Shown: piece after piece, positions 8,643 through 44,096 of the stretch
Layout of the letters: the number at the start of each line of letters is the position of its first letter
Position numbering within the stretch: position 1 is the stretch's first letter
Assembly: GCA_963708025.1 (NCBI GenBank)
Contig: CAVPSB010000014.1
Location: forward strand, 160,001-224,000
DNA: 64,000 bases
Origin: an uncultured Candidatus Rokubacteria bacterium
GTDB taxonomy: Bacteria; Methylomirabilota; Methylomirabilia; Rokubacteriales; DASRDR01
Reading direction: 5' to 3'
The notes under the pieces: generated by a model
What the model was told of the DNA's origin: nothing
Database searches by the model: none
Seen by the model: only the letters and a program-made list of their open reading frames with translations
Translations under genes and position numbers: made by a program

Positions 8643-9526
8643 ATGGAACAACACGATCTGACCTTCGTCATTCCCACCTACCGCCTGGATGTCCGGGAGA
8701 CGCTGCCCCATCACGTCCGGTTGATGGAGCTCGTGTTCAAGGACGTCAGCCGCTTCGACGTGATCCACTTCCACACCGACTACCTGCATTTCCCGCTCGT
8801 GCGACGTCACCGATGCCCGAGCGTCACGACATTACACGGCATGGTCCACCCGCACGATCTGCAGGCACTGCTCGGGGAGTACCGAGACGTTGCGCTGGTG
8901 TCGATCTCGAACGATCAGCGCCGTCCGATTCCCGACGCAAACTGGCAGGCGACCGTCTACCATGGCCTGCCGCGCGAGTCCTTCACATTTCGCGCCGAAC
9001 CAGGGACGTACCTCGCGTATCTCGGGCGGATGTCGCCCGAGAAGCGGGTGGATCGTGCAATTGAGATCGCCCGGCGAGCGGGTGTGCCGCTCAAGATCGC
9101 CGCGAAGATCTACCCGGAGGAGCGGCACTACTTCGACGAGACGCTGGCGCCGCTGATCCACGCGTCACAGTCGCTCGTCGAGTTCGTTGGCGAGATCGGC
9201 AACCGCGAAAGAGACGACCTCCTCGGCAAGGCCGCCGCCCTGCTGTTCCCCATCGAATGGCCTGAGCCATTCGGCCTGGTCATGATCGAGGCCCGGCCTG
9301 CGGAACGCCCGTCGTCGCGTGGCGTCGCGGATCCGTCCCGGAAGTGCTGGAGGAGGGCGTCACCGGACGCATCGTGGACAGCGTCGATGACGCCGTCCGG
9401 GCGGTCGGCAGCATCGAGCGCCTGAGCCGGGCTGCCTGCCGCCGCGCATTCGAACAGCGGTTCGATGCCAGACGCATGGCGATGGACTACCTCGAGGTGT
9501 ATCGCCGCGTCGCTCCGGTCGGCTGA
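8643..9526 (+). pseudogene. GT4 glycosyltransferase lacking its N-terminus (chimeric 5' end), with a frameshift near 9292
   Basis: DVIHFHTDY, TTLHG, YLGRMSPEK, LLFPIEWPEPFGLVMIEA(frameshift)ACGTPV. No MRIAQVAP...GG N-terminal motif. Confidence 0.75.
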
Positions 9527-9732
9527 GCCGGGCATCCCACTTCGAAGGCATTCCTCGGTTCTGGTACGATAGCGGCACGTTGGCCCAGGTACTCGTCCGC
9601 GCGAACGACGCGGGCGCCGGAGAGTCGCGACGTGGATGTGCTGCTATCCGACCCCTCCTGCCCGGCGCCGGCGCTCCGCGTGTCCTCGACGGTCCGCATC
9701 GCTGACGCTCGGGAAAGGGTAGAAGCGATTCG

Positions 9733-18900: not shown

Positions 18901-21280
18901 AGCACCGCATCGTCGTTGGCGGCGAGCTGAAATGGGTGCGGGAGCGGGCGCAGGTCGAGTTCGACGCGGATGGCCGCGCCGTGAGGCGGAATCGGCACGG
19001 TCCAGGACATCACCGAGCGGAAGCGGGCGGAGGACGAGATCCGCCGGCTGGCTCGCCTGCAGGCGGAAGCCGCCGAGCTGGGGCAAGACGCCCTGCGCGG
19101 CGCGCCCTTGCAGGAGGTGCTGGACGGCGCGGTCACGCGGGTGGCCCGGGCTCTCGGCGTCGATTACTGCAACGTCGCGGAGATGCTCCCGGGCGGCGAC
19201 GAGTTCCTCCTGCGCGCGGGCGTCGGCTGGAAGGAAGGGGTCGTGGGGCGAGCGACGGTGAAGAGCCGTGGCTCCCAGCCCGGATACACCGTCCTCAGCG
19301 ACCGCCCGGTGATCGTCGAGAACGCGGCGACGGAAACACGCTTCGCCCCGCTGCCGCGGCTGCTCGGTGAAGAGGTCGGGAGCGCGATGAGCGTGGTCAT
19401 CTCCACCGCGGAAGGCCCCTACGGCGCCCTGGGCGCCCATAGCCGGCGTCGGCGGGTGTTCACGGGAGACGAGGTCAACTTCCTCCAGGCGGTCGCCAAC
19501 GTGCTCGGCATGGCCATCGAGCGCCGGCGCGCGGAGGAACGGCTCCGTCGCGTCAATCGCGCGCATCGTGCCCTCAGCACGTCCAACGAGGCCCTGGTCC
19601 GCGCCACCGACGAGTCCGCGCTGCTGCGGCAGATCTGCCAGATCATCGTCGAGGAGGCGGGGTATCGACTCTGCTGGGTCGGCTATGCGGAAGGGGACGC
19701 CGCCCGGACCGTGCGGCCCATCGCGCAAGCGGGGTTCGACGAAGGGTACCTGAAGGCGGCGAACATCACCTGGGCGGACTCCGAGCGCGGCCGCGGGCCG
19801 ACGGGGACCTGCATCCGCACGGGCCAGATCCAGATCGCGAAGAACATCGGCACGGACCCGAAGCTGGCGCCGTGGCGCGCGGATGCGCTCCGGCGCGGAT
19901 ACGCCTCGTGCATCGCCATCCCGCTCGTGGCCGAGGGCCAGCCGTTCGGCGCGCTGACGATCTACTCCCCGGAGATCGAGGCGTTCGGGGACGAGGAGGT
20001 GAGGCTCCTGAGCGAGCTGGCCGGCGATCTGGGCTATGGCATCGTGTCGCTGCGCACGCAGGCCGATCGAAAGAGGGCCGAGGTGGAAGAGGTGGCCCGT
20101 GAGCGCGAGGTCGCGATCGGCTTCAAGATCCAGCAGATGCTGCTCCTGGACGAGCCGCCCCGGGACATCCCCGGACTGCGCGTGGCCGCGCTCGACCGTC
20201 CCCTCGCAGCGGATCGCCGGCGATTTCTACGACTTCTTCACCCACCAGGACGAGAGCCTCGACCTCATCGTCGCGGACGTGATGGGCAAGGGAATCCCTG
20301 CCGCGCTCCTGGGCGCGGCGACCAAGAGCCATTTCACGGAGGCCCTGTGCCACCTGATTGCGCTGTCCCCGGTCGGGGCACTTCCGGAGCCCCGGGAGGT
20401 CGTGACCCTGGCCCATGCGGGCATGGCGCGGCATCTGATCGAGCTCGAGAGCTTCGTGACCCTGTGCTACGCCCGCGTGGACCTGACCCGCCGCCGCCTC
20501 GACCTCGTCGATTGCGGACATACGGGAGTCATCCACGTGCGGGGCGGGACCGATCGCTGCGAGATGGTCCACGGAGACAACCTGCCGCTCGGCATCCGCG
20601 AGGGCGAGATCTACGATCAGATCACCGTCCCGTTCGAGGCCGGAGACGCCTTCCTCTTCTACTCGGACGGGGTCACGGAGGCGTCCAATCCCGCCGGAGA
20701 GCGGTTCGGCGCGGACCGTCTGATGGCTTGTGTCCAGACGAACGCGAATCTCGCGCCCGACGCGCTGGTGGGCGCGATCCGCACGGCCGTCCTCGCATTT
20801 GCCGGCTCGGACCGGCTGACCGATGACCTCACGTGTGTGGCCGTCGAGGTCGGAGAGCGCCGGCGTCCGCTCGCGCGAGGGGAGACGGAGATTCGCAGCG
20901 ACCTCAAAGATCTGAGCCGGGCCCGCGAATTCGTGCGCACCTTCTGCCGCGCACTTCCCGGGCCACCGCTCGACGAGGACCGCGTGGCCGAGCTTGAGCT
21001 GGCGGTGAACGAGGCAGCCAGCAACGTCATGAAGCACGCCTACCATGGGCGCGCCGATCAGCGGATTCATCTCGAGGCCGAAGCGTTTCCGGACCATGTC
21101 GCGGTCCGGCTGCACCATCTCGGAGATCCCTTCGATCCGTCGGCGGTGCCCCCGCCCGCTTTCGATGGCTCCCGCGAGTCCGGATTCGGCGTCTATCTGA
21201 TCACGAGGAGCGTCGACGACGTCCGCTACTATCGCGACGAGCGCGGGGGCAACTGTATCGCCCTGGTCAAGATGCGCTGA
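15905..21280 (+). CDS. Giant membrane sensor: DUF4118-PAS-TM-multiple PAS-GAF-GAF-SpoIIE/PP2C phosphatase-RsbW-like HATPase (frameshifts near 18228, 18985, 20193)
   Basis: FNFFFLPPIYSLTIADPQNW (KdpD-type TM), PAS/PAC ends such as DITERKQAEE, PP2C motifs GDFYD/ADVMGKG/YSDGVTEA/DDLT, and anti-sigma kinase motifs LAVNEAASNVMKHAY...GFGVYLI. Confidence 0.85.
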
Positions 21281-24946: not shown

Positions 24947-27623
24947 CTAGCGCCCGCCCGCTTCCCGCAGTCGCTGCAACAGCTCGCCCAGGCGGCGAAG
25001 CTCTTCGCTCGCGCGCGTGAGGGCGGAGGCCGCGGCATCCAGCAGCGTCTTCACCGAGCCCTCGGCCCCCACCGGGGGACTCGGCGCCACCTCGGCCCCC
25101 GCCCGCGGCGCCGGTCCACCGAACACCCGCGCCATCGCGCCCGTCCAGCGTCTCCTCCATGGCGATCCGGTCCCCGAAGCCGACGATCACGCGCTTGAGC
25201 TCCGGGAGCTGCCCCTTCTCGGCGGCGATGTAGAGCGGCTCGACATACACGAGGGAGCGCTCGATGGGGATGACCAGGAGATTCCCCCGGATCACCTGGG
25301 AGCCCCGCTGGTTCCAGAGGGAGAGCTGCTGGGAGATGAACGAGTCCTGGTCGATCCGGGCCTCGATCTGCCGGGGTCCGTAGATCAGTTTCTGCTTGGG
25401 GAAGTTGTAGACGACGAGCTTCCCATAGTGGGGCGGGTCGCTCCGCGCCGCCAGCCACGCGGACAGGTTGTCCTTCTTGCTGGGAGTGAAGGGGATGAGG
25501 AGGACGAACTCCTCCTTCGGCTCGCCGGGCAGGCGCAAGATGAGGTAGTAGGGCTCCATGGCCTGATCCTGCCCACCCACGGGGCGGACCGGGATGCTCC
25601 AGAGGTCCTCCTTGTTGTAGAAGACCTGGGTGTCGCGCATGTGGTAGACGGCGTACATCCCCGCCTGGATCCGGAACAGCCCCTCGGGGTAGCGGATATG
25701 GGCGCGGAGGTCGGCCGGCATGGCGTCGAGCGGCTGGAGCAGCCCGGGGAAGATCCGCGCGATCGTGCGGATCAGGGGATCCGCCGGATCCGCGACATAG
25801 AAGTGCACCGTCCCGTCGTAGGCGTCCACGGTCACCTTGACGGCGTTGCGCACGTAGTTGCCCAGCCCGCGCGTCGGCGTCGAGTACGGGAACCGGTCGG
25901 AGACCGTGTAGCCATCCAGGAGCCAGACGATGCGCCCCGCCGCCGAGATCACCATGTAGGGATCGTCGTCGTACCGGAAGAACGGGGCGATCCGCTGGAC
26001 CCGCTCCCGGATGTTCCGGTAGATCAGCACCCGGCTTTCCGTGGTCAGGTCGTTCGACAGGAGGAGCTTGAGGTCCCCCAGGTGCGCCGCGAACAGCGCC
26101 TTGCGCCAGAAGGACCCCAGCGGGATCCCGCCCTGTCCCTCGTACGTGGTGTAGACGTTCTGGTCCCCCGCCGGGTAGTCGAATTCCTTGGCCCGGGTCT
26201 TCACGAAGACATAGTCGGTGGCCAGCTCGCTGAAGTAGAGCTCCGGGCGGGAGATCCGGAGATCGCTGGAGGCCACCGGAGGGATGTCCTTGACCCAGAA
26301 CTCGGGGAGCCCCTCGCGCGTCACCCGGTTCACCGGGCTCACCACGGCGCCGTAGCCGTGCGTGTACGTCAACCGCTCGTTGATCCAGATCCGGCTCGGC
26401 AGATCCTTCGCGGAGAGCTCCCGCGGCGACAGGGTCACCTGCCGGTACTCCCCGTTGATGGTGTACCGATCGATATCGATATCCGTGAACTTGTAGTAGG
26501 TCCGGATCTCTTGGAGCTGGCTGTAGGTGGCGAGCAGGGGCCGGGTGTCCCACAAGCGGATATTCTTGATGGTCGCGTCGTTCTTGCGCAGGTCCTGAAG
26601 CGTCAGCGTCTGCTCGGCCGGGAACTCCCGCTCCTCGATGTTGTCCAGGCCGTAGGCCAGGCGGGTGTAGCGGATGTTGAAGTCGATGTACGGCTTCTCC
26701 TTGACGATCTCGTTCGGGGACACCTGGTACCGCTGGATCAGACCCGGGTACGCGACCCCGCCCAGGATCGCCACGCCCACCAGCGCGGCGACGCTCCACA
26801 GGAGGGGGCGCCAGCTCCGGAGACGGATCGTGACCAGGCACAGGACGGCGACCAGGCCGGCCAGGACCATCAGGGCCTTCAGGACCGGGAGCTGGGCGTG
26901 GACGTCGGCATAGCCGGCGCCGAAGGCCACGCCCCGCTGGGAGAAGAGGAGGTCGAACATGGCCAGACGGTACCCGGCGGCCTTCAGGAGGAGCAGCAGG
27001 GCCGCCAGGACCAGGAGGTGACCCCGGGCCCGTCGGGAGATCGAGACGGCCCTCGGGGGAGACCTGAATGCCCCGGGTGCAGAAGTACACGGCGATCGCG
27101 GCCAGACCCGAGAGGATGAGGACCCCCATCAGCCAGCCATAGAGGGAGCTCCAGAGCGGGAGCTGGAACACGTAGAAGGCCACATCCTGGTCGAAGAGCG
27201 GGTCCCGGATGCCGAACGGCGTGGGATTCAGAGCCTTCAGGACCAGCTCCCATCGGCCCGTCCCCAGCCAGCCGGCGAGGAGGGCCAGGATCACGCTCAC
27301 GGGCAAGGCCAGACGGCGGAGGTAGGGCTCCAGGATCTCTGGACTGGGCAGCCCGAGGGCGTCGTCCGCCGCCACGAGGACCTCGCGCGGGGCGAGCCGC
27401 CGGGCGAGGATCACGTTGCCGTACAGGATCAGGAAGAACGCGGCGCCCGTGACCACCCCGAGGAGGACCTGCGTCCGGAGCACGGTGACGAAGACCGACG
27501 TGAACTGCACCTCGCGGAACCAGAGCCAGTCGGTGTAGAGGCCGAGGATCTGGCCGGCCGTGCTCAGAAGGGCGATGGCGGCGATGACGAGGATCAGCCA
27601 CGATGAGACCACGGAACACGCAT
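24947..27623 (-). CDS. UPF0182 family membrane protein (frameshifts near 27610, 27055, 25143)
   Basis: YTDWLWF, DPLFDQDVAFYVFQLP, GAGYADV, NIRLWD, YTHGYG, NYVRNAVK, GNLLVIPI, YVEPLY. Confidence 0.9.
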
Positions 27624-27850
27624 GGGACGGCCCTCCCTCCCGAGGTTCACCGACGGGCGATGGATCCTGCCCGCCGGACCAGGACCGAATCGCGAATCAC
27701 GGAGAGCTCGGCAGCACTCCGATCCGATGCATTTTCCCCGCCGTGCCTCGGCGGCGAGCGGCGGCGCGGCGTGGAGGCTGAGGGCCGAGCGAACGAGGCG
27801 GGTAATGGCCCTGAGGTGTCTCCAGGCCTCCTGAACCGGCGAGTGCGGCG

Positions 27851-27879
27851 AGTGTAGGCCGGAGGCCAGTCGGGGTCAA
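27851..27879 (-). promoter_or_regulatory. Sigma-70 promoter for UPF0182
   Basis: TTGACC-N17-TACACT on the minus strand. Confidence 0.6.
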
Positions 27880-27992
27880 GCCGGCCGGGGACGCTGCCTC
27901 CCCAGTTGGGGCGCCCGGTCCCCGATGGGGCGGCGACGCCACATGTGGTCCCCGAGGCTGCCGCCGGGCCGGGGCGTCCGAACTTACCGGGT

Positions 27993-28062
27993 CTTTACGC
28001 GCCCTTGATGCCCCAGGGCATGGATTTGACGCCATCTTGACCTGGTATGGACGACACTTCGG
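27993..28062 (+). promoter_or_regulatory. Four-box direct-repeat promoter (KdpE-type), copy C, upstream of porin-kdp
   Basis: Boxes start at 27994, 28005, 28026 and 28037 (11/21/11). GACACT at 28053. Confidence 0.8.
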
Positions 28063-28118
28063 AGTGCGGATTCCTGGAGGGCCGTTGAGGCGACCCGCTT
28101 GGCGCCGCCGTGGGTCCG

Positions 28119-28134
28119 TGGCACCGCTGTTGCG
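28119..28134 (+). promoter_or_regulatory. Sigma-54 -24/-12 promoter motif
   Basis: TGGCACCGCTGTTGCG matches TGGCAC-N5-TTGC. Confidence 0.55.
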
Positions 28135-28275
28135 CGCTCCCGCACCTCGGCGCCGAGGGCCCTCGCGGGATCCGACGCCTCCCCGGAGATTCCCGGGAGG
28201 GTTCCTGCTGGCGCCGGACCCGGCCGTGGGCCGGGAGTCGGACGCCCTGGCATGACGCCAGGAAGGGAGGGGACC

Positions 28276-29478
28276 GTGGCCGAGCGTGAGGACGGGACAC
28301 CCTGGATCGTGGCGGGCGCTGACCGCCGCCGGGGCGCGTGGCGAGCGGGGCGGGCCGTGCTGGCGGTGGGCGCCGTCCTCGTGGCGGCGACTGGCGCCTT
28401 CGGCCAGACGACGGGCGCCGAGCCGCCCAAGGAGGCGCCCAAGACGCTGTTCCAGGAGCTGGTCTGGTTCGCCTACGTGGAGAACAGCGGCACGTTCAAC
28501 CTCCGCGGGGACGCCACCGACGGGACCAACGAGCTGCGCTTCTACGACGTCAACCGGGGGTACACCTTCAACATCGCGGAGTTCAGCGTGAAGAAGGAGC
28601 CCTCGGAGCGCTACCCCTTCGGCTTCGGGCTGGTCCTCACCGGGGGCGAGGACTCCCAGTTCAACCACGCGATCGGCATCTTCCGGGACGCGGACGAGGC
28701 CCCCACCGACACCGACAAGTTCGACGTCCAGGAGGCGTACCTCTCCTACAAGGTCCCGGTGGGCGCCGGGCTCACGCTCAAGGGCGGGAAGTTCGTCACG
28801 CCGATCGGCTACGAGGTCATCGAGTCGCCGAACGACCTGAACTTCTCGCGGGGCTTCCTCTTCACCTTCGCGACGCCGCTCACGCACGTCGGGCTGCTCG
28901 GCCTCTACCCGGTGAGCGACGCGCTCACGGTCACCGCCGGGCCGGTCCTCGGCTGGGACGTGGCCACCGACCGCAACGGCGCGCCCTCCGGGCTGGTCTC
29001 GGTCGCCTACACGGGCGTGAAGGACCTGTCGACGACCCTGAACTTCATCGTGGGCCCGGAGAAGACGGGGGACCAGACGAACCTGCGGGCGCTCCTCGAC
29101 CTGGTCGTCGCCTACACGGGGATCAAGAACGTGACGCTCGCCGCCGAGCTCGACGTCGCCGGGGAGGAGGACGCCGCGCCGGACGGCGGCACCGCCACCT
29201 GGTGGGGAATCGCCGGCTACGCGGCCTACGACTGGACCGAGAAGCTCCGCACGGCGGTGCGGCTCGAGTACTTCGACGACGCGGACGGCGTCCGCACCGG
29301 GTTCGGCTCCCAGCTCGGCCTCTTCGAGGTGACCGCGACGCTCCAGTACAAGATCTGGCGGGGGCTGGTCGGGCGCCTGGAGTACCGGCACGACCAGGCC
29401 GACGAGCGCGTGTTCTCCGGCGGGACGAACAAGAGCCAGGACACGTTCTCGGTGTCGGTCTACTACTCCTTCTTCTGA
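28276..29478 (+). CDS. Outer-membrane beta-barrel porin associated with the kdp operon
   Basis: Signal-like N-terminus, GKFVTPIGYEVIES..NLNFSRG.LF, RLEYRHD and C-terminal YYSFF. Confidence 0.85.
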   Translation: MAEREDGTPWIVAGADRRRGAWRAGRAVLAVGAVLVAATGAFGQTTGAEPPKEAPKTLFQELVWFAYVENSGTFNLRGDATDGTNELRFYDVNRGYTFNIAEFSVKKEPSERYPFGFGLVLTGGEDSQFNHAIGIFRDADEAPTDTDKFDVQEAYLSYKVPVGAGLTLKGGKFVTPIGYEVIESPNDLNFSRGFLFTFATPLTHVGLLGLYPVSDALTVTAGPVLGWDVATDRNGAPSGLVSVAYTGVKDLSTTLNFIVGPEKTGDQTNLRALLDLVVAYTGIKNVTLAAELDVAGEEDAAPDGGTATWWGIAGYAAYDWTEKLRTAVRLEYFDDADGVRTGFGSQLGLFEVTATLQYKIWRGLVGRLEYRHDQADERVFSGGTNKSQDTFSVSVYYSFF

Positions 29479-29490
29479 GGAGGGCATTCC

Positions 29491-29574
29491 ATGCTCGACG
29501 TCTTGTACCTCGGGATCATCGTCGGGTTCCTGGCCCTGTCGTGGGGCCTGATCGAGCTGTGTGACCGACTCTAG
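29491..29574 (+). CDS. 27-aa single-TM peptide preceding kdpF
   Basis: GAGGAGG RBS. MLDVLYLGIIVGFLALSWGLIELCDRL*. Confidence 0.75.
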   Translation: MLDVLYLGIIVGFLALSWGLIELCDRL

Positions 29575-29598
29575 GCCCGAAGACCGGAGGATCGCGCC

Positions 29599-29688
29599 AT
29601 GGCGCTCTACGTGATCGGCGGAATCGTGTCGCTCGGACTCCTCGTCTACCTGGTGGTGGCGCTGCTGAAGCCGGAGGTGTTCTCATGA
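29599..29688 (+). CDS. kdpF: K+-transporting ATPase subunit F
   Basis: [29 protein letters not shown]. Its stop overlaps the kdpA ATG. Confidence 0.9.
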   Translation: MALYVIGGIVSLGLLVYLVVALLKPEVFS

Positions 29689-31486
29689 CCGCGAACGGGT
29701 ACCTGCAGATCGCGCTCTACCTCGTCGTCCTGCTGGCGCTGGCGAAGCCGCTCGGCGGTACATGGCGCGGGTCTACGAGGGCCAGCCGCTCGGCCTCGAC
29801 CGCGTGCTCGGGCCGCTCGAGCGGCTGATCTACCGGCTGTGCCGGCGTCCGGCCCGGACGAGGAGATGGGCTGGAAGACCTACGCCCTCGCGATGCTGCT
29901 CTTCAACGTCGCGGGCTTCGCTCGCCGTCTACGCTGCTGCAGCGCCTCCAGGGCCTGCTGCCGCTCAACCCGCAGGGCCTCGGCGCGGTCTCGCCCGGAC
30001 TCGTCGTTCAACACCGCCGTCAGCTTCGCCACCAACACCAACTGGCAGGGCTACGGCGGCGAGACGACGCATGAGCTACCTGACCCAGATGCTCGGGCTG
30101 ACGGTGCAGAACTTCGTCTCGGCCGCCGACCGGCATGGCGGTGCTGGTCGCCTTCATCCGCGGCTTCGTCGCGCCGCACGGCCGAGCACCATCGGCAACT
30201 TCTGGGTCGACCTGACGCGCAGCACGCTCTACATCCTGCTGCCGCTGTCGCTCGTGCTGGCGCTCGTCGCTGGTCTCGCAGGGCGTGGTGCAGACCTTCG
30301 CGGCCCTACGCGAGCACGGTCGTCCAGACTACGAGTGCCGAGACGACGGACGGCAAGCCGGTCCGGACGAGGCAGCCCAGCGCGAAGTGCGACCGAGCAG
30401 ATGCTCGCCGTCGGCCCGGCCGCCTCGCAGATCGCCATCAAGCAGCTCGGCACCAACGGCGGCGGCTTCTTCAACGTCAACTCGGCGCACCCGTTCGAGA
30501 ACCCGACGCCGCTCTCGAACTTCCTCGAGATGCTGGCGATCCTCCTGATCCCGGCGCGCCCTCTGCTACACGTTCGGCAGGATGGTCGGCGACACGCGCC
30601 AGGGCTGGGCGCGTGCTGGCGGCGATGACGGTCGTGCTTCGTGCCGTCCTGCTGGCGCCTGTGCTGGCGGCCGAGCAGCGCGGCAACCCGCGCCTCGGCC
30701 GCGCTCGGCGTCGACCAGCCAGGCGAGCGCCCTCCAGCCGGGCGGCAACATGGAGGGCAAGGAGGTGCGCTTCGGCATCGCCAACTCCGCGCTCTGGGCG
30801 ACGGCGACGACCGCCGCCTCCAACGGCTCGGTCAACTCGATGCACGACTCGTTCACGCCGCTCGGCGGCCTGGTGCCGCATGTGGCTGATGCAGCTCGGC
30901 GAGGTGATCTTCGGCGGCGTCGGCTCGGGCCTCTACGGCATGCTGATCTTCGCCATCGTCGCGGTGTTCGTCGCCGGGCTGATGGTCGGCCGCACGCCGG
31001 AGTACCTCGGCAAGAAGATCGAGGCCTACGAGATGAAGATGGCGTCGCTGGTCATCCTGATCCCGCCCGTCGCTGGTGCTGATCGGCACCGCGGTCGCGG
31101 TGGTCGACGCGCCGGGCGGCAAGGCCACGCATCTTCAACCCCGGCGCCGCACGGCTTCAGCGAGATGCTCTACGCCTTCTCGTCGGCCGGCAACAACAAC
31201 GGCAGCGCGTTCGCCGGGCCTCGGCGCGAACACGCCCGTTCTACAACACGGCCCTCGGGCTCGCGATGCTCTTCGGCCGCTTCTGGCTGGCGATCCCGGC
31301 GCTGGCGATCGCCGGCTCGCTGGCCGCGCAAGAAGAACGTGCCCGCCGGCGCCGGCACGCTGCCGACGCACACGCCGCTGTTCGTCGTGCTGCTGGTCGC
31401 GCGTGGTCGTGCTCGTGGGCGCGCTGACCTTCATCCCCGCGCTCTGGCGCTCGGACCGATCGTCGAGCACCTGCATGATCGACTGA
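29685..31486 (+). CDS. kdpA: K+-transporting ATPase subunit A (many frameshifts)
   Basis: Fragments [58 protein letters not shown]. Confidence 0.9.
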
Positions 31487-31522
31487 GCGTCGAAGCCTGT
31501 AGCGACGGAGGTCGCAGCTACC

Positions 31523-33631
31523 ATGGCGACACGACGTCAAGCGCGTCCGCTGTTCGAGTCGCGCCGATCGTCGCGCCGCGCGCATGGTCGACTCGTTCCG
31601 CAAGCTCGACCCGCGCCATGCAGGTGCGCAACCCGGTGATGTTCGTCGTCGAGGTCGGCAGCGTCCTGACGACCGGCGCTGTGCGTCCAGGCGCTGGTCG
31701 GCCACGGCGAGGCGCCGGCCGGGTTCATCCTCGGCGGTCTCGGTCGTGGCTGTGGTTCACCGTGCTGTTCGCCAACTTCGCCGAGGCGATGGCCGAGGGC
31801 CGCGGCAAGGCGCAGGCCGACGCGCTGCGCAGCGCGCGCGCAGCGACGTCCAGGCCAAGAAGCTGCATCGAGCCGCGACGCGGCGGCCGACGTCACGCAC
31901 GGTCACCGTGCCGGCGTCGCTGCGCAAGGGCGACGTCGTCCTCGTCGAGGCCGGCGACGTCATCCCCGGCGACGGCGAGGTCATCGAGGGCGTCGCCTCG
32001 GTCGACGAGAGCGCGATCACCGGCGAGAGCGCGCCGGTGATCCGCGAGAGCGGCGGCGACCGCAGCGCCGTCACCGGCGGCACCCGCGTGCTCTCGGACT
32101 GGCTGATCGTCCGCATCACCGCCAACCCGGGCGAGACCTTCCTCGACCGCATGATCGCCCTGGTCGAGGGCGCCAAGCGCCAGAAGACGCCGAACGAGAT
32201 CGCGCTCAACATCCTGCTGGCGGCGCTGACGATCATCTTCCTGCTCGCCACGCGCGACGCTGCTGCCGTTCTCGCATCTACAGCGTGAGGCGGCGCGGCC
32301 AGGGCACGCCGGTCACGGTGACCGTGCTGGTCGCGCTGCTGGTCTGCCTGATCCCGACGACGATCGGCGGGCTGCTGTCGGCGATCGGCATCGCCGGCAT
32401 GGACCGCATGATCCAGGCCAACGTCATCGCCATGTCGGGCCGCGCGGTCGAGGCGGCCGGCGACGTGGACGTGCTGCTGCTCGACAAGACCGGCACGATC
32501 ACGCTGGGCAACCGCCAGGCGACCGCGTTCATCCCCGCCGCCGGGCGTCGACGAGCGGGAGCCTGGCCGACGCGGCCCAGCTCGCCTCGCTGGCCGACGA
32601 GACGCCCGAGGGGCGCAGCATCGTCGTCCTGGCCAAGGAGAAGTACGGCCTCCGCGAGCGCGACGTCCACGAGACTCGGCGCCACGTTCGTTCCCTTCAC
32701 GCGCGCAGACCCGGATGAGCGGCGTCGACCTGGACGGCCGCGCAGATCCGCAAGGGCGCCGCCGACGCCGATCGAGGCCTACGTGCGGCAGCCAGGGCGG
32801 CGACGTTCCCGGCCGACGTGCGGCACGATGGTCGAGCGGATCGCCAAGCGAGGGCGGCGACGCCCGCTGGTCGTCGCCGACGGCGCGCACGGTGCTCGGC
32901 GTCATCCAGCTCAAGGACATCGTCAAGGGCGGCATCCGGAGCGCTTCGCCGAGCTGCGCCGGATGGGCATCAAGACGGTGATGATCACCGGCGACAACCC
33001 GCTGACCGCCGCGGCCATCGCCGCCGAGGCCGGCGTCGACGACTTCCTGGCCGAGGCCACGCCCGAGGCCAAGCTGAAGCTGATCCGCGAGCTACCAGGC
33101 CGGCGGGCGGCTGGTGGCGATGACCGGCGACGGCACCAACGACGCGCCGGCGCTGGCCCAGGCCGACGTGGCGGTGGCGATGAACACCGGCACCCAGGCC
33201 GCCAAGGAAGCCGGCAACATGGTCGACCTCGACTCCAACCCGACCAAGCTGATCGAGATCGTCGAGATCGGCAAGCAGCTGCTGATGACGCGCGGCGCGC
33301 TGACGACGTTCAGCATCGCCAACGACGTCGCCAAGTACTTCGCGATCATCCCGGCGGCCTTCGCCACCACCTACCCGGCGCTCGAACGCGCTGAACGTCA
33401 TGCACCTGGCCACGCCCGCAGAGCGCGATCCTGTCGGCGGTGATCTTCAACGCGCTGATCATCATCGCGCTGATCCCGCTGGCGCTGCGCGGCGTGCGCT
33501 ACCGGCCGCTCGGCGCCGTCGGCGCTGCTGCGCCGCAACCTGCTGATCTACGGCGTCGGCGGCGCTGATCGCGCCGTTCATCGGCATCAAGCTGATCGAC
33601 CTGCTCCTGGTCGCCCTGCGGCCTGGCCTGA
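31523..33631 (+). CDS. kdpB: K+-transporting P-type ATPase subunit B (many frameshifts)
   Basis: [39 protein letters not shown]. Confidence 0.92.
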
Positions 33632-33645
33632 GCGACGCCGAAGCG

Positions 33646-34239
33646 ATGCCACGACACATGCGACCAGCTCGACCCGGCGCTCGTGATCCTGGTGCTGCTC
33701 ACGCGTCATCACCGGCGTCGTCTATCCGCTGCTGGTCACCGGCATCGCCCAGGTCGTCGTTCCCGCGCCAGGCCAACGGCAGCCTGATCGTGCGGGACGG
33801 CAAGGCGGTCGGCTCGGAGCCTGATCGGCCAGCCGTTCGCCGACCCGAAGTACTTCTGGGGCCGGCCTCTCGGCCACCGCGCCGTTCGCCGTACAACGCC
33901 GGCGCCTCGACCGGCTCGAACCTCGGGCCGCTCCAACCCGGCGCTCGACGACGCGGCGCAAGGCGCGATCGACGCGCTGCGGGCGGCCGATCCCGGCAAC
34001 ACGGCGCCGATCCCGGTCGACCTGGTCACCGCCTCCGGCAGCGGGCTCGACCCGCACATCAGCCCGGCCGCGGCGCTGCTACCAGGTGCGGCGGGTCGCG
34101 AAGGCGCGCGGGCTGGACGAGGCGGCGGTCCGCCAGCTCGTCGAGCAGCACATCGAGGGCCGCCAGCTCGGCGTGCTCGGCGAGCCGCGCGTCAACGTCC
34201 TCGCGCCTGAACCTGGCGCTCGACGGCGCCGCGGGCTGA
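33646..34239 (+). CDS. kdpC: K+-transporting ATPase subunit C (many frameshifts)
   Basis: [43 protein letters not shown]. Confidence 0.88.
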
Positions 34240-34369
34240 CCGCGCGCGAGAGGAGCCCGAGCATGGCCCGCCCCGGCCGTAGGCACGGGACGGCCGGGTC
34301 CCCACGCCGAGCGGGGGCCGGCCCGGACGGGCGAGGCCCGGCGGGCCGAGCCCGGCCGGAGGGCGCAGC

Positions 34370-36216
34370 GTGAATCCCTTCAGCCTCTGCAGTACGCCCT
34401 GTTCCTCGGCCTCGTGCTCCTGCTCGTCCGGCCGGTCGGCCGGTACCTGGAGCGCGTCTTCGCCGGCGAGCGGACGTTCCTCGATCCCGTGATGCGTCCG
34501 CTCGAGCGGGCGATCTATCGGTGGGCCGGCGTCGATCCGCGCGAGGAGATGGACTGGAAGCGATACGCCACCGCGTTCCTGCTGTTCAGCCTCGCCGGGA
34601 CGCTGCTCCTCTACGTGATCCTGCGCCTCCAGCCCGTCCTCCACACCTTCGACCCGGCGTTCCGGCCCGACCCGGTGGCGCCCGACCTGGCGATGAACAC
34701 GGCCATCAGCTTCGCGACCACGACCACGTGGCAGGCCTACGGCGGCGAGACCACCATGAGCTACTTCAGCCAGATCGTGGGACTGGCGGCCCAGAACTTC
34801 CTGGCCGGCGCGGCGGGGCTGGCCGTCGGGATCGCGTTCATCCGCGGGCTGGCCCGCGAGCGACGACGGCCGCTGGGCAACTTCTGGGTGGACCTGGTGC
34901 GGGCGATCCTGTGGGTGCTGCTGCCGCTCTGCGTCGTGGGCAGCCTGGTGCTCGTCTGGCAGGGGGTGCCGCTCAACTTCAACCCCTACCAGGCGGTGCC
35001 GCTGCTCCAGTCGACGAAGGCCGCGGACGGGCGGCCGTCACGACGCAGGTCCTGCCCAGGGGCCGGTCGCGGCGCTCGAGTTCATCAAGAACCTGGGCAC
35101 CAACGGCGGCGGCTTCTTCAATGCGAACGGCGCGCACCCCTACGAGAACCCGACGCCGCTGACGAACTTGCTCGAGATGCTGGCCATCGTGGTGCTGCCG
35201 GCCGCGCTGACCCACACCTTCGGGCGGATGGTCGGGCGCCCGCGCCAGGGCTGGCTGCTGTTCGGGGTCATGGTCGTGCTCTTCGTGGCGGGCCTCGTCG
35301 CGTGTGAGTGGGCCGAGCAGCGCGGGAACCCGCATCTGGCCGGGCTCGGCGTGGACATCGTGGCCAGCGATGCCCAGCCGGGCGGCAACATGGAGGGCAA
35401 GGAGACACGGTTCGGCATCGGGGGCTCGGTGCTGGCGGCGGTCACCACCTCGAACGGCGCGACAGGCTCGTACAACTCGATGCACGACAGCTATACGCCG
35501 CTCGGCGGAGCGGTGCCGCTCGTCAACATGCTGCTGGGCGAGATCGTCTTCGGCGGGCTCGGCACCGGCCTGTACAGCATGATCATGATGGCCCTGATCG
35601 GGGTCTTCGTGGCCGGGCTCATGGTCGGGCGGACCCCGGAGTACCTGGGCAAGCAGATCACCATTCCGGAGATGAAGCTGATCGCGCTGTACACGATCGT
35701 GGCGCCCTTGGTGATCCTGCCGCTCACCGCGCTGGCGGTGGTGACGGACTGGGACTGGGCACGCTCTACCGGCCGGCGCGGCGTTCGACGATCTCGAACC
35801 CCGGCGCGCACGGCTTCACCGAGATGCTCTTCGCGTACGCGAGCTGCTTTGCCAACAACGGCCAGAACTTCGCCGGCCTCGGCGCCAACACCCCGTTCTA
35901 CAACGTCACCATCGCGCTGGCGATGATCGCCGGGCGCTTCGGCCTGGCGATCCCGGCGCTCGCGCTGGCCGGGCGCTTCGCGCAGCAGCAGCGCCGGCCC
36001 CCCGGGCACGGGACGCTGCCGACGGAGACGCCGCTGTTCGGCGCCCTGGTCATCGGCACGATCCTGATCGTCGGCGCCTTGAGCTACTTCCCGGCCCTCG
36101 CCCTGGGGCCGATCGTCGAGCATCTGCTGCTTGATCCCGGGACCATGATTCGGATCCACGCCGGACGGGGTCCCGACCGGATGGCAGGTGGCCGTGATCC
36201 AGGCGGGTGGAGGTGA
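34370..36216 (+). CDS. kdpA: Second, divergent KdpA paralogue (a few frameshifts)
   Basis: [70 protein letters not shown]. Confidence 0.88.
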
Positions 36217-36221
36217 GCGGG

Positions 36222-37196
36222 ATGCTGACGATCTTCACGAACCCGGCCTACGACTTCATCGGGAAGCGGCGCTGGGCCTACGCGGTCTCCATCGCCGTCA
36301 TGCTCCTCGGACTCGGCTCGATGCTCGTCAAGGGCGGACTGCTGTACGACATCGACTTCACCGGCGGGACGCTGGTGGAGGTGCGGCTGGCACAGCCGGC
36401 GCCGATCGCGACGGTCCGCTCGCGCCTGGCCACGGTCGGACTCGGCGAGAGCATCCTCCAGGTCTTCGATGATCCGCGGGATGTCCTGATCCGGACCCAC
36501 TCCACCTCGACGAGCCCGACGGAGCTGAGTCGACGGATCGTCGAGGCGCTGGATCCGGACGGGACGAGCCCCACCGAGGTCCGGCGCGTGGAGTTCATCG
36601 GGCCCCAGATCGGCGGCGAGCTGCGCTGGCAGGCGGCGTACGCCGTCCTCGCCGCGCTCGGCGGGATTCTCCTCTACGTCTGGCTGCGCTTCGACTTCCG
36701 GGGTGGGGTGGTGACGATCATCAGCCTGGCGCACGACGTGTTCATCTGCCTGGGGGCGCTCTCCCTGACGAACCGGGAGTTCTCCCTGTCGGTGCTGGCC
36801 GCCCTCCTGACCGTGATCGGATTCTCCGTCAACGACCGGATCGTGATGTACGACCGGCTGCGGGAGATCCGGTCCCGGACGACGCAGGCGAAGGTCCCGT
36901 TCGCCCAGCAGGTGAACCTCGCGGTGAATCAGACGCTGTCCCGAACGGTGCTGACGGTCGCGACCATCGTCCTCTCGGCCGGAATGCTCTTCGTGTTCGG
37001 CGGCCGGGCTCTCGAGAGCTTCGGCTTCGTGATCCTGGTGGGAGCGGTGACGGGCGTCACGTCCACGGTCTACGTGGCGGGGGCCCTGGACGTGGACTGG
37101 TCGGCCTGGGCCGACCGCCTCCGGGCGCAGCGTCCCGGAGCCGGAGGGTCCGGCCGCCCGCGCCGGGCCGCGGCCAGGCCCCGGGCCTCCTCGTGA
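36222..37196 (+). CDS. secF: SecF-family membrane protein with no adjacent SecD
   Basis: YDFIGKRR, IDFTGGT, IGPQIGGEL, LAHDV, GFSVNDRIVMYDRLRE, NQTLSRT. Confidence 0.88.
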   Translation: MLTIFTNPAYDFIGKRRWAYAVSIAVMLLGLGSMLVKGGLLYDIDFTGGTLVEVRLAQPAPIATVRSRLATVGLGESILQVFDDPRDVLIRTHSTSTSPTELSRRIVEALDPDGTSPTEVRRVEFIGPQIGGELRWQAAYAVLAALGGILLYVWLRFDFRGGVVTIISLAHDVFICLGALSLTNREFSLSVLAALLTVIGFSVNDRIVMYDRLREIRSRTTQAKVPFAQQVNLAVNQTLSRTVLTVATIVLSAGMLFVFGGRALESFGFVILVGAVTGVTSTVYVAGALDVDWSAWADRLRAQRPGAGGSGRPRRAAARPRASS

Positions 37197-38317
37197 GCCC
37201 GGCGAGCGGTCTCTTCCTGGGCGTCGGCCCGGTCCTGGGCGTCCCGCTTCGCGTGCACGCGAGCTGGTTCGTCACCGTGCCGCTCCTCGCCGCGGTCCTC
37301 GCGACCGGATCGTTTCCCCGGCACCTGCCCGCCAGCCCGCCGGCGGTGCACTGGGTCTACGGGCTGATCGGAGCACTCCTCCTCTTCGCGTCGGTGCTGC
37401 TGCACGAGCTCTCCCACGCGCTGATGGCGCGGCGGCGGGGGCTGCCCGTGGCCCGGATCACGCTGCACGGCCTGGGCGGGGTGGCGGAGCTCGAGCGCGA
37501 GCCCGCGTCGCCGCCGGACGAGCTCTGGATCACGATCGCCGGTCCCATGACGAGCTACGCGCTGGCGCTGGCCGGCGGGGTCGCCTTGCTCGTGCCCGGG
37601 GCACCGCCCGGCGTGACGTCGGTGCTCGGCCACTTCGTGGTCATGAACCTCACGGTGGGCACCTTCAACCTGGTGCCGGGCTTTCCGCTCGACGGCGGCC
37701 GGCTGCTGCGCGCGGCGCTGTGGGCGTGGCACGGCGACCACGACCGGGCCACCCGGTCGGCGAGCCGGGTCGGTGCGGTCGTGGCCATGGCGCTGGTCGG
37801 GCTGGGCATCGTGTCGACGGCGCGCACCGGCGCGATCGCCGGACTCTGGCTCGTCGCGGTCGGGCTCTACCTCCGGCGAGCCGCGGGCGCCGCCGGGGTC
37901 CGGCTGGCCGTCCAGCGGGCGCTCGAGCCCATTCCGGTCCGTGTCGCGATGACCTTCGAGAGCGCCGCCGTGCCGGCCGACACCACCGTCGACGAGCTGG
38001 TCCGCGATCACTTCTCGCCCGAGGGCACCGGCTCCGCCGTCCTCGGTGCCGGCGGCGCCGTCGTCGGCATCGTGACCTACCGCGAGGTGGGGGCGGTGCC
38101 CGAGGAGGAGCGGTCGACCACCACCGTGTCCGACGTCATGGTGGGCCTCGCGGATGACCTGACGACGGCGCCGGCCGCCTCCTGCTGGGACGCCTTTTGC
38201 CGGCTGCAGCGCGTGGCCGGCGGCCGCCTCCTGGTGCTCGAGGACGGGCGCCTGGTCGGGACGCTCGGTCTCGACGACCTGGCCCCGCTGCTGGCGTGGT
38301 CGCGCCGGCGGCCGTGA
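37193..38317 (+). CDS. Site-2 protease (peptidase M50) with CBS pair
   Basis: HELSH, AGP, FNLVPGFPLDGG and C-terminal CBS-like repeats. Confidence 0.9.
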   Translation: MSPASGLFLGVGPVLGVPLRVHASWFVTVPLLAAVLATGSFPRHLPASPPAVHWVYGLIGALLLFASVLLHELSHALMARRRGLPVARITLHGLGGVAELEREPASPPDELWITIAGPMTSYALALAGGVALLVPGAPPGVTSVLGHFVVMNLTVGTFNLVPGFPLDGGRLLRAALWAWHGDHDRATRSASRVGAVVAMALVGLGIVSTARTGAIAGLWLVAVGLYLRRAAGAAGVRLAVQRALEPIPVRVAMTFESAAVPADTTVDELVRDHFSPEGTGSAVLGAGGAVVGIVTYREVGAVPEEERSTTTVSDVMVGLADDLTTAPAASCWDAFCRLQRVAGGRLLVLEDGRLVGTLGLDDLAPLLAWSRRRP

Positions 38318-39352: not shown

Positions 39353-41408
39353 GTGATCGAGCACCGACCCGACCCGGACGCGCTGCTGGAGCGGGTGCGC
39401 CAGGAGGAGGCCCGGCGCGCCCGCGGCCGGCTCAAGGTGTTCTTCGGCGCCGCCGCCGGGGTGGGGAAGACCTACGCCATGCTCGTGGAGGCCCGGGAGC
39501 GGCGGGCCGCCGGCGTCGACGTGCTGGTCGGGTACGTCGAGCCCCACGCCCGGCCGGAGACCCAGGCGCTGCTCGACGGGCTCGAGCAGCTGCCGCCCCG
39601 GACGGTGGAGCACCGGGGTGCGCGGCTCCAGGAATTCGACCTGGACGCGGCCCTCGCCCGACGCCCCGCCGCTGGTCCTGGTCGACGAGCTGGCGCACAC
39701 CAACGCCCCCGGCGCTCGCCACGCCAAGCGCTGGCAGGACGTGCTCGAGCTGCTGAAGGCGGGCATCGACGTCTACACGACCTGCAACGTGCAGCACATC
39801 GAGAGCCTGAACGACGTGGTCGCCAAGATCACCGGCGTCCAGGTGCGGGAGACCGTGCCGGACTCGGTCCTGGAGGAGGCGGACGAGGTCGAGCTGGTCG
39901 ACCTCCCGCCCGACGACCTGCTCCAGCGCCTGCGGGAGGGCAAGATCTACCTCCCCGAGCAGGCGGAGCGGGCGGTCGAGAAGTTCTTCCGCAAGGGGAA
40001 CCTGATCGCGCTCCGCGAGCTGGCCCTGCGGACCACCGCCGCCCGCGTGGACGCCCAGATGGACGTCTACCGCCGGGACCACGCCATCCCGACGCCGTGG
40101 CCGGTGACCGAGCGCATCCTGGTCTGCGTCAGCCCCAGCCCGTCCGCCGCCCGCGTGGTGCGGGCCGCTCGCCGGATGGCGGCCGGGCTGCGGGCCGAGT
40201 GGGTCGTGGCCTACGTGGAGACGCCGGCGCAGGCGCGCCTTCCCCAGGCCGAGCGCGACCGCGCGACACAGCACCTCCGGCTCGCGGAGCAGCTCGGGGC
40301 GGAGACGGTCACGCTCACCGGCCACAGCGTGGCCGACGAGGTCGTCGCCCACGCCCGGCAGAAGAACGTCAGCAAGATCGTGATCGGCAAGCCCGCCGGG
40401 TCCCGGTGGCGGGAGGTCCTTTTCGGCTCGGTGGTCAACGACCTGGTCCGGAAGAGCGGCGACATCGACGTCTACCTGATCACCGGAGAGCAGGAAGCGC
40501 CGCGCGCGGCCACCCCGCAGCCCCGTCCCGAGCGGATCGACTGGCGAGCGTACGGCCTGGCGCTCGGGGTCGTGGCCCTCTGTACCGGCGTGAGCGCGGT
40601 CGTCTTCCCGTACCTCGAGCTCGTCAATCTGGTCATGGTCTATCTGCTCGGCGTGGTGCTGGTCGCCACCCGGTCGGGGCGCGGCCCATCGATCCTGGCG
40701 TCGATCCTCAGCGTGGGCGCCTTCGACTTCTTCTTCGTGCCGCCCTATCTCAGCTTCGCGGTGTCCGACACCCAGTACCTCGTGACCTTCGCCGTCATGC
40801 TCCTGGTCGCCGCGGTCATCAGCACGCTGACGGTCCGGGTTCGCCAGCGGGCGGAGTCGGCCCGCGAGCGCGAGCGCCGGACGGCCGCGCTCTACGCGAT
40901 CAGCCGCGAGTTCGCCGGAACGCGCGGGGTGGACGAGCTGGTGCGGGTGGCGGTCCGTCACGTCGGCGACGTCTTCTCGAGCGAGGTGGGAGTCCTCCTG
41001 CCCGACGCCGCCGGCCGTCTGGCTCCCCGGGCGGTCGCGCAGTCGATGGCGGAGGCGGATTCGAGCGAGCGCGGGGTGAGCCAGTGGGTCTACGAGCACG
41101 GCCAGATGGCCGGTCTCGGGAGCGACACCCTGCCGGGCGCCCGGGCGCTCTACCTGCCCCTGGTGGCTTCCCGGGGCACGATCGGGGTCCTGGGGGTGCA
41201 GCCCGCGAGCCCGCAGGCTCTGGCGGCGCCCGAACAGCTCCACCTGCTCGAGACCTTCGCCGCCCAGACCGCCCTGGCGATCGAGCGGGCCATCCTGGCG
41301 GAGGCGGCGCAGCAGGCGCAGCTCCGCGCGGAGTCGGAGCGACTCCGGAGCGCGCTCGGTGCGGGCTCACACGAGAAGCCACCGGAGGTCCGGCTCGACG
41401 CGGGTTAG
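39353..41408 (+). CDS. kdpD: KdpD sensor lacking the HisKA/HATPase kinase core (frameshift near 39668)
   Basis: RPDPDALL, GAAAGVGKTYAML, DELAHTN, USP, four-TM DUF4118 and GAF. Ends ESERLRSAL-GAGSHEKPPEVRLDAG* with no SHDLRTPL H-box. Confidence 0.85.
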
Positions 41409-43192: not shown

Positions 43193-43282
43193 ATGACCGA
43201 GCAGCGGCCCGATCCCAACGAGGTACCGGAGTGGGTCTGCGCCGCCCAGAAGGCACCCGAGGCCCGGCTCGACGCGAGTTAG
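43193..43282 (+). pseudogene. 29-aa kdpD relic (N-terminal motif joined to C-terminal tail)
   Basis: MTEQRPDPNEVPEWVCAAQKAPEARLDAS* compared with kdpD MIEHRPDP...EKPPEVRLDAG*. Confidence 0.55.
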
Positions 43283-43313
43283 CCGGCGGGCAGGGATCCG
43301 CGAGGAGGCATCG

Positions 43314-44096
43314 ATGAGTCGAGAGGACCCGATCGAGGTGTGGCTGGCGGTCGCCGGGCTGGGCGCGGTCGCGCTCGGAGTCGCGCTGATCCCGCTCCGA
43401 GCGGTCACGTCCGCGTCGAACCTGGCCTTCGTGTTCCTGGCCTTCACGATCGTCGTCGCCGAGATGGGCGGCCGCGGGCCGGCGTTGCTGGCGGCGCTCG
43501 TCTCGGCGATGAGCCTCGACTTCTTTCTCACCGAGCCCTACCTGACGCTGGCGATCAGCAAGACGGACGACGTGATCGCGTTCGCCGGGCTGGTCGGGTG
43601 CGGGCTCATCGCCGCCGCGTTCGGCGCCCGCCGGGCCCGCTGGTCCGAGACCGCCCGCCGCGCGGCCGGGGAGCTGGACGTGCTGAAGGGGGTGAGCGGG
43701 CGACTGGCCGAGGGGGCGTCGCTCGACGGCGTCCTCGAGGACCTGCGCCGGGCCTTCCGCCTGGGGACGGTGGCCCTGCGGGACGCCGACGAGCGCGTCA
43801 TCGCCGTGACGCCACCGGGTGCGGCGGCTCCGGGAGCTCCCACCGCGCGCCTGAACCCCGGCTCGCTGCTGGCGTCCGACGCGACGACGCACCGGTTCGG
43901 CCCCCGGGGCCTCCGCCTCCCCGAAGGGGGCGGGCGCCTGCGCCTCCCGGCCGGGGAGGACGTCGTCTGGCTCGATCTCCAGGAGGGCGATCCGCTGGGC
44001 CTCGACCTCGACGAGCGCGAGACGCTGTCGATCGCGGCCTCGATCCTGGGGCTAGCGCTGGCCCGCGCGCGCCGCCGCCTCGGCCCCGCCGCCTAG
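43314..44096 (+). CDS. Stand-alone DUF4118 (KdpD-type TM) protein with GAF-like tail
   Basis: SNLAFVFL...MSLDFFLTEPYLTLAISKTDD, with no kinase motifs. Confidence 0.8.
   Translation: MSREDPIEVWLAVAGLGAVALGVALIPLRAVTSASNLAFVFLAFTIVVAEMGGRGPALLAALVSAMSLDFFLTEPYLTLAISKTDDVIAFAGLVGCGLIAAAFGARRARWSETARRAAGELDVLKGVSGRLAEGASLDGVLEDLRRAFRLGTVALRDADERVIAVTPPGAAAPGAPTARLNPGSLLASDATTHRFGPRGLRLPEGGGRLRLPAGEDVVWLDLQEGDPLGLDLDERETLSIAASILGLALARARRRLGPAA

Follow-up and report, generated by a model that had tools for sequence, protein, structure and literature searches.

A conserved KdpA subfamily with rewritten selectivity-filter loops in an uncultured Rokubacteria bacterium and other soil bacteria

Background

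KdpA is, to our knowledge, regarded as working only within the pump KdpFABC. Here we analyse kdpA2, a second kdpA gene that follows an ordinary kdp operon (kdpF, kdpA1, kdpB and kdpC, hereafter kdpFA1BC) in a 64,000-nucleotide stretch of DNA from an uncultured Candidatus Rokubacteria bacterium (assembly GCA_963708025.1, contig CAVPSB010000014.1, positions 160,001 to 224,000 of the forward strand); this whole stretch is called the window, and coordinates are those of the window unless a locus is named. The product of kdpA2 belongs to a clade of KdpA proteins with a TTTWQ-type filter, for which T-type is our own name. Residues are numbered as in E. coli KdpA (locus L081).

Among described proteins, comparison is most direct with the KdpA chain of the E. 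coli KdpFABC structures (PDB 5MRW, 6HRA), to whose residues 10-556 align residues 7-585 of P0001, the closest intact relative of kdpA2 (591 residues), with E = 1.9e-151. According to PMC12629597, S3 is the main K+ site of KdpA, Q116 and G232 set affinity and selectivity, and E370 and R493 flank the vestibule leading to the tunnel into KdpB. The T-type proteins share with E. coli KdpA the four-repeat architecture, the D2 loop TNGGG, the filter glycines, Q116, E370, R400 and R493. They differ from it by N112T, N114T, Q222L, A341N, A342G, S343A, C344T, A346S, V347Y, V376L, G382S, N465A, S469Q, A470N and K510Q, and in that their genes are unlinked to kdpF or kdpB.

The stand-alone SKT channels KtrB and TrkH belong to the same superfamily and also have an intramembrane D3M2 loop, according to PMC6255902. 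They work without a P-type ATPase, as gene context suggests for the T-type proteins; unlike them, the latter match KdpA profiles only, and no RCK/TrkA-type partner is found in the neighbouring open reading frames (ORFs) scanned. In HKT transporters, the preference for Na+ or K+ depends on whether the D1 filter position is occupied by Ser or Gly. D1 is the loop most altered in the T-type proteins (N to T at 112 and 114), although HKT is a different family and KdpA starts out with Asn instead of Gly at this D1 position.

More than one KdpA in a single kdp locus has parallels. A Xanthobacteraceae metagenome-assembled genome (MAG) carries a variant extra kdpA (D1 TNTSWQ; L037, 3663-5384) before a canonical kdpABC, locus L027 (4434-8730) has two kdpABC operons in tandem, and P0381 is a canonical KdpC-KdpA fusion protein. 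None of these extra copies is T-type, however, and the L037 copy groups with canonical KdpA inside a pump operon. A full-text literature search, with subscription papers outside its scope, returned no description of a KdpA clade that lacks KdpB or has the T-type filter, and an atlas look-up gave generic KdpA clusters only. The 'KdpACD' of a pH-preference preprint denotes Pfam families enriched in acid-preferring taxa. A T-type subfamily with a rewritten filter was thus not found described in the literature searched.

Filter residues and phylogeny of kdpA2

The gene and its four filter loops are located as follows.

34370-36148, + strand: kdpA2, T-type KdpA, start GTG 34370 (in GTGA), probable true stop TGA 36146-36148
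34720-34734, + strand: filter loop D1, TTTWQ (E. coli N112-Q116)
35099-35113, + strand: filter loop D2, TNGGG, as in canonical KdpA
35450-35473, + strand: filter loop D3, SNGATGSY, in which A-T-G-S aligns with E. coli S343-A346
35854-35868, + strand: filter loop D4, NNGQN (E. coli N466-A470)

Aligned to E. coli KdpA, kdpA2 has TTTWQ rather than NTNWQ in D1 and NNGQN rather than NNGSA in D4, while D2 is identical. The corresponding letters of kdpA1 are NTNWQ (30034-30048), TNGGG (30452-30466), SNGSV (30819-30833) and NNGSA (31195-31209). A sequence-only reading of the window had drawn attention to these differences, and every filter motif that it quoted for the two copies is present, including the retained D2 TNGGG. 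Its comparison of SNGAT with SNGSV in D3 was out of register, though: G345, the filter glycine, corresponds to the G within A-T-G-S of kdpA2 and to the one within S-N-G-S of kdpA1 (both at S343-A346), and in the alignment the 'SNG' of kdpA1 comes three residues after that of kdpA2. Nor is the canonical copy adjacent, as it had been called, since kdpB and kdpC lie between kdpA1 and kdpA2. In place of the canonical residues N112, N114, S343 and S469, kdpA2 has T, T, A and Q.

These letters recur widely. A search with the middle piece of kdpA2 gave 8000 scored matches, the best 120 of which are 75-91% identical to it; among those 120, TTTWQ is found in 101 (11 have no D1 match), TNGGG in 115, SNGATGSYN in 108 and ANNGQx in 96. 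A FastTree phylogeny of 145 rows (82 KdpA from 80 loci, the first 60 of 106 full-length matches, E. coli KdpA and read-through versions of kdpA1 and kdpA2) places all TTTWQ-type rows in one clade of 69 rows with a support of 100, and kdpA1 in the canonical part of the tree, nearest L026, L028 and L040. When 1.84 billion representatives clustered at 50% identity were searched without a profile, 1765 proteins were found at E <= 1e-30, and about 12 of the best 150 are T-type. In a quick IQ-TREE tree of 117 rows of such representatives, from which sequences below 520 residues and P0425 were left out and in which the root was not inferred, the 10 T-type rows are separated from the others by a branch with a Shimodaira-Hasegawa-like approximate likelihood ratio (SH-aLRT) of 100. 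Their stem (0.32) is the longest internal stem of that tree, and they are nested among NTNWQ groups; the T-type branches inside ordinary KdpA.

Position counts, taken over the 69 T-type rows and 75 canonical rows (the long-branch row L027_KdpA_4434 being dropped from the latter), give N112T, N114T, S140A, A141G, Q222L, T340S, A342G, S343A, C344T, V347Y, V376L, G382S, S469Q and K510Q as the clade-defining changes, and A470N is also among the T-type filter changes. These changes are concentrated within and behind D1, D3 and D4, three of the four filter loops. In D1, T112 is found in 66/69 T-type rows against N in 75/75 canonical ones, and T114 in 68/69 against N in 74/75; L222 is present in 69/69 against Q in 75/75. 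D3 has A343 in 68/69 (S in 75/75 canonical rows), T344 in 69/69 and Y347 in 66/69 (V in 74/75), and D4 has Q469 in 65/69 (S in 75/75). The sequence-only reading had proposed a phylogeny as the check for a distinct TTTWQ/NNGQN clade, with drift in this one copy as the alternative. As the substitutions recur across a strongly supported clade (support 100 for the 69 rows, SH-aLRT 100), drift fails as an explanation: they define a conserved subfamily.

The T-type retains T113, W115, Q116, TNGGG, G345, N466, N467, G468, E370, R400 and R493; the glycines of the filter loops (G232-G234, G345 and G468) are present in 69/69 T-type rows, kdpA2 included, and E370, R400 and R493 in 68/69, 69/69 and 68/69, with all three in kdpA2. 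G232, G345, G468, E370, R400 and R493 are common to the T-type and canonical groups. The KdpA profiles (PF03814, TIGR00680) are matched over their full length; on TIGR00680, with a cut-off of 387.7 bits, intact T-type proteins score 607-666 bits and canonical ones 784-1008 bits. A structure model of P0001 built from a 16-row alignment is of low confidence (mean predicted local distance difference test 51.3, predicted template modelling score 0.54).

Gene context of T-type loci

A genome scan gave at least 80 kdpA loci, and among the matches listed 8 are T-type and 72 canonical; the counts that follow refer to these listed loci, and the flanks seen around the T-type ones measure 1.5-10 kb. The 8 T-type loci come from four Acidobacteriota MAGs, a Terriglobales MAG, a Chthoniobacterales MAG, a Planctomycetaceae MAG and the isolate Ktedonobacter sp. 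SOSP1-85 (L004). By tblastn, kdpB is present in 0/8 T-type loci against 69/72 canonical ones, and the 3 canonical loci without it end within a few bases of kdpA, at a contig edge. A small kdpF-like ORF lies 5' of the gene in 0/8 T-type loci but 5' of 67/73 canonical kdpA genes (the pattern used matched 1/540 random control segments), and a KdpD-like gene is found in 1/8 T-type loci (L002) against 51/72 canonical loci. Pfam detected no P-type ATPase in the 61 ORFs neighbouring the 8 T-type loci, and no partner with an RCK domain (KtrA/TrkA) was found in these 61 ORFs or in 16 ORFs of a further locus, from Ralstonia. The subunit that does accompany the T-type in some genomes is KdpC: kdpC lies directly 5' of the T-type kdpA in 3/8 loci (L004, L010, L012), and the 776-residue representative protein P0363 is a KdpC-KdpA fusion with the T-type filter.

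Searching a plasmid collection yielded one more T-type gene (59.4% identity; the other 471 records reach at most 52%), and this ninth T-type locus lies on a complete 1.98-Mb replicon of Ralstonia sp. RRA.1. The gene there is intact and is the sole KdpA-like place in the 1.98-Mb record, with no kdpB or kdpC within 12 kb on either side, so that kdpB is found in 0/9 T-type loci overall. The T-type is widespread across soil phyla, namely Acidobacteriota, Chloroflexota, Planctomycetota, Verrucomicrobiota and Methylomirabilota, and some Burkholderiales.

On the + strand of the window, the order between 29.6 and 36.2 kb is kdpF, kdpA1, kdpB, kdpC, a spacer of 130 nucleotides, kdpA2 and secF. The kdpF-kdpA-kdpB order is therefore absent around kdpA2, which has no kdpF-like ORF 5' and secF 3'. 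The earlier statement that this copy has no KdpB or KdpC of its own is borne out: neither gene lies 3' of kdpA2, and the sole kdpB and kdpC of the window lie 5' of it and by similarity belong with kdpA1. No T-type kdpA was found in the flanks of the canonical loci (0/72), so the side-by-side arrangement of the window is an exception. The spacer between kdpC and kdpA2, which are on the same strand, folds into no stable hairpin (z = -0.94); a promoter and terminator scan of 33900-36500 found none, and an Rfam scan of 27000-37500 gave no match.

The neighbourhoods of T-type genes have otherwise little in common. None of the SecF, M50, Usp, DUF4118, MgtE and BBP2 proteins of the window recurs in the 8 T-type loci, and the KdpD-like protein is the only window neighbour that does (in L002). 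Unassigned ORFs beside T-type loci are mutually unrelated, the outer-membrane proteins of L005 and L006 being the one exception.

Frame breaks in kdpA2 and in kdpFA1BC

The sequence-only reading placed the second KdpA at 34370-36216. KdpA-like coding does fill 34370-36148, where PF03814 is covered in three pieces (positions 2-206, 210-432 and 429-548 of 548), but no open frame spans 34370-36216: the ORFs over kdpA2 are fragments only (34414-35307, 35168-35926, 35308-36216), and the pieces score 222.6, 299.1 and 149.3 bits on TIGR00680, each alone below the cut-off. The end at 36216 has to be given up as well, since by homology the stop is TGA 36146-36148 and the stop at 36214-36216 lies in a shifted frame. 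That reading missed the frame breaks in kdpA2 and in its neighbours. The coding pieces are these.

34387-35031, + strand: kdpA2 piece 1, window frame 1, homologous to P0001 residues 4-218 (76% identity)
about 35034-35058, + strand: short frame-0 bridge between pieces 1 and 2
35060-35752, + strand: kdpA2 piece 2, frame 2, homologous to P0001 residues 228-459 (91% identity)
35755-36129, + strand: kdpA2 piece 3, frame 1, 88% identity to P0001
36131-36148, + strand: last six codons of kdpA2, frame 2

Piece 2 matches residues 217-439 of the E. coli KdpA chain 6hra_A with E = 1.8e-70. In a three-frame translation the KdpA sequence changes frame near 34385, 35033, 35059, 35754 and 36130, with a possible compensated pair of shifts near 35770-35785, so that kdpA2 has at least 5 breaks in 1.78 kb. 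When P0001 is aligned to the DNA in a frameshift-aware manner, the read-through product is 85% identical over 587 aligned residues, with 0 in-frame stops. Four shifts are aligned, three of them the loss of one base from a run of G or C (35033, 35059, 35754) and the fourth an extra base (36130); a fifth break lies just 3' of the GTG at 34370. Among 186 columns at least 97% conserved in the clade, kdpA2 deviates at 3 (clade median 1, range 0-16). Of the other T-type genes, 8/9 consist of one ORF of about 560-600 residues, and that of L012 is cut at 490 residues.

The operon upstream is broken far more often.

29599-29688, + strand: kdpF of the canonical operon, 29 residues, its stop overlapping the kdpA1 start
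29685-31488, + strand: kdpA1, canonical NTNWQ-type KdpA, frame-broken, 76% identity to KdpA of L040 and L028, canonical clade in the tree
about 31521-33627, + strand: kdpB, frame-broken, DKTGT motif at 32483-32497, by Pfam match and frameshift-aware alignment
about 33630-34239, + strand: kdpC, canonical type, frame-broken, start uncertain, 70% identity over 200 aligned residues

In the sequence as given, kdpA1 has 23-25 frameshifts, kdpB 19 and kdpC 8, and yet the corrected products share 76%, 81% and 70% identity with their counterparts in L040 or L028 and have no internal in-frame stop. Across kdpFA1BC (29676-34236) we counted 46 single extra bases. The wobble base and the extra base together read CG (20) or GC (18) in 38 of the 46, the codon is synonymous whichever of the two bases is dropped in 39, and the extra base copies the preceding one in only 1. 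Extra bases of this type are sparse elsewhere in the window (2 in the UPF0182 gene, 1 in the KdpD-like gene, 0 in secF), and most flanking genes match Pfam profiles end to end in a single ORF. This pattern fits synonymous C/G differences between co-assembled strains that a consensus step wrote as insertions, rather than mutational decay.

As for kdpA2, the lack of in-frame stops, the 85% identity and the low number of deviations at conserved columns indicate that its breaks are probably consensus errors of the assembly and not decay, the gene probably being intact in the organism. That kdpA2 is instead an inactivated remnant in this genome seems improbable to us. Its breaks, at least five in 1.78 kb where flanking genes have 0-2 each, would agree with a pseudogene; against this stand the features just named, the nature of 3 of the 4 aligned breaks, each the loss of one base in a G/C run, as is typical of long-read consensus errors, and the obvious consensus artefact in the neighbouring kdpFA1BC.

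Which copy is resident

Matches to the T-type KdpA and to the intact SecF encoded 3' of it (36207-37196, + strand; 95% identity to P0121, 0 frameshifts) lie on contigs of equal size in four pairs, compared by eye (8767, 18578, 128318 and 131661 nucleotides); the best SecF match (95%) and the best KdpA2 match are on 8767-nucleotide contigs of the same source, and the named SecF matches are Methylomirabilota. By comparison, a frameshift-free piece of kdpB (140 residues) has a best match only 86% identical, from a Caldilineaceae, and none of the best 120 matches to this piece lies on a contig of any of the four sizes. The closest relatives of kdpA1, kdpB and kdpC are all in the same foreign loci (L026, L028, L029 and L040), the KdpC of L028 being closest to that of the window (72% identity over 190 columns). 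One 744-residue database KdpB, P0241, has an inflated score because the segment matched by the kdpB query is internally duplicated.

With moderate confidence, we take kdpA2 and secF to be the native genes of this lineage, probably Methylomirabilota, and kdpFA1BC to be a strain-variable block, possibly acquired, that encodes a separate ordinary pump. Strain variability of this block would explain the concentration of consensus artefacts there. That the variant copy, and not the canonical operon, looks resident in the lineage had escaped the sequence-only reading.

Proposed function and alternatives

T-type proteins keep the features of the KdpA fold while their genes are unlinked to kdpF and kdpB, and some are linked or fused to kdpC. 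This combination suggests that the T-type lineage may work apart from the KdpB pump with a re-tuned filter, a reading to which we assign a probability of about 0.45. T-type KdpA would then serve, without the KdpB pump, for the uptake of a monovalent cation (K+ being the likeliest) at a changed affinity or selectivity, and it would act in a channel-like manner, alone or together with KdpC. Put tentatively, the T-type might descend from a pump subunit that became a cation channel or uptake protein, either autonomous or, as one of two parts, assisted by KdpC.

Several observations weigh against this. The glycine-rich D3M2 loop is nearly unchanged in the T-type, which also keeps E370 and R493, so that no exit to the cytoplasm is apparent. 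Of the positions conserved in canonical KdpA, only 5 vary in the T-type, a number too small to outline an interface, and there is thus no clear release of a KdpB-facing surface from constraint. We know of KdpC only as a pump subunit. The evidence from context comprises no more than 9 T-type loci and their flanks, and in this window kdpA2 could be co-transcribed with kdpFA1BC. The density of breaks per kb in kdpA2 is about 17 times that of flanking genes. Lastly, according to Stock 2018 (PMC6255902), E. coli KdpA gives no K+ uptake by itself, and in every solved state its pore is closed off from the cytoplasm. The pump-independent channel of the sequence-only reading thus has gene context on its side (kdpB in 0/9 and a kdpF-like ORF in 0/8 T-type loci, against 69/72 and 67/73) and the inactivity of lone E. 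coli KdpA against it.

That inactivity favours the main rival reading, in which T-type KdpA would be an alternative entry subunit, joining KdpB, KdpF and KdpC encoded elsewhere, or just 5' in this window, to form a pump with another affinity or ion preference than the kdpA1 pump. The sequence-only reading had raised a swap onto KdpB of this kind, and parts of the evidence agree with it: the placement of kdpA2 on the kdpC strand, 130 nucleotides 3' of that gene and separated from it by neither a terminator-like site nor a stable hairpin; the conservation of E370, R400, R493 and the D3M2 loop; the nesting of the T-type among pump-linked KdpA; and the association with KdpC in 3/8 loci and one fusion protein. 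We nevertheless consider it rather unlikely, since kdpB and kdpF-like ORFs are missing from the T-type loci (0/9 and 0/8), no T-type kdpA lies near the 72 canonical loci, which makes the arrangement in the window exceptional, and the canonical operon here already has its own kdpA. A plainer version, in which the T-type is the KdpA of a second pump with an unlinked kdpB and its filter changes are ordinary lineage variation of little functional effect, seems improbable to us. D1 does have other spellings (NTDWQ in 12, NTNLQ in 6 and NTSWQ in 5 of 152 rows, comprising 150 representatives, E. coli KdpA and P0001), and T-type proteins pass the kdpA equivalog well above its cut-off. But N112, S343, S469 and Q222 are each found in 75/75 canonical rows with the changed states fixed in the T-type, the clade sits on the longest internal stem of its tree, and linkage to kdpF, kdpB and kdpD is lost, a loss that we regard as complete in the sample, though a KdpD-like gene is present in 1/8 loci.

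A non-transporting K+ sensor or regulator, the remaining role proposed by the sequence-only reading, found no support and is very improbable. Usp genes and a KdpD-like sensor that has no kinase domain do lie 3' of kdpA2, and kdpD adjoins the T-type kdpA in L002; the T-type retains the whole transporter architecture and its filter glycines, however, no signalling domain is fused to the protein, and linkage to kdpD is confined to that one locus of 8. Independence from the KdpB pump, with the filter re-tuned, remains the reading that we prefer.

Other features of the window

The G+C content of the window is about 70%. Directly 5' of the kdp operon lies an outer-membrane porin gene:

28030-29478, + strand: BBP2-family outer-membrane porin, intact (PF07642, E = 8.7e-70)

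Another BBP2-family porin lies directly 5' of the T-type kdpA in the Chthoniobacterales locus L002 (1-909), and such a porin may be an outer-membrane partner for K+ entry. Between the porin and kdpF of the window, a small hydrophobic ORF of 27 residues occupies 29491-29574, just 5' of kdpF. On the other side secF directly follows kdpA2, and there is no secD in the window. The KdpD-like sensor (39353-41405) has KdpD N-terminal, Usp, DUF4118 and GAF domains and one frameshift near 39671; it has no HisKA or HATPase domain, and there is no room for one before mgtE. A separate DUF4118 protein is encoded at 43197-44093.

On the - strand at 3-2351, genes with DO-GTPase2, GASH and GAAD domains together form a GTPase-associated system. 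Broken frames are also seen away from the kdp region. A large sensor gene at 15932-21277 (DUF4118, PAS repeats, GAF repeats, SpoIIE phosphatase and HATPase_c_2) extends over four overlapping ORFs in different frames and probably carries further frameshifts. Two more proteins encoded at 8300-11250 seem frame-broken: a glycosyltransferase, with partial matches to GT4 and GT1, and an exchanger of Na+/H+ type, profile positions 5-102 and 102-239 of which fall in different ORFs.

Conclusions

T-type genes pass the kdpA equivalog and are named pump subunits even where no pump gene is nearby, because their products score above the TIGR00680 cut-off; this bears on annotation. At positions invariant in ordinary KdpA, the T-type also offers a coordinated group of filter substitutions that arose in nature, and this group could be used to test what determines affinity and selectivity. 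If our reading is true, a pump subunit would have reverted to, or become, an independent transporter; otherwise pumps may draw on an unlinked, interchangeable ion-entry subunit.

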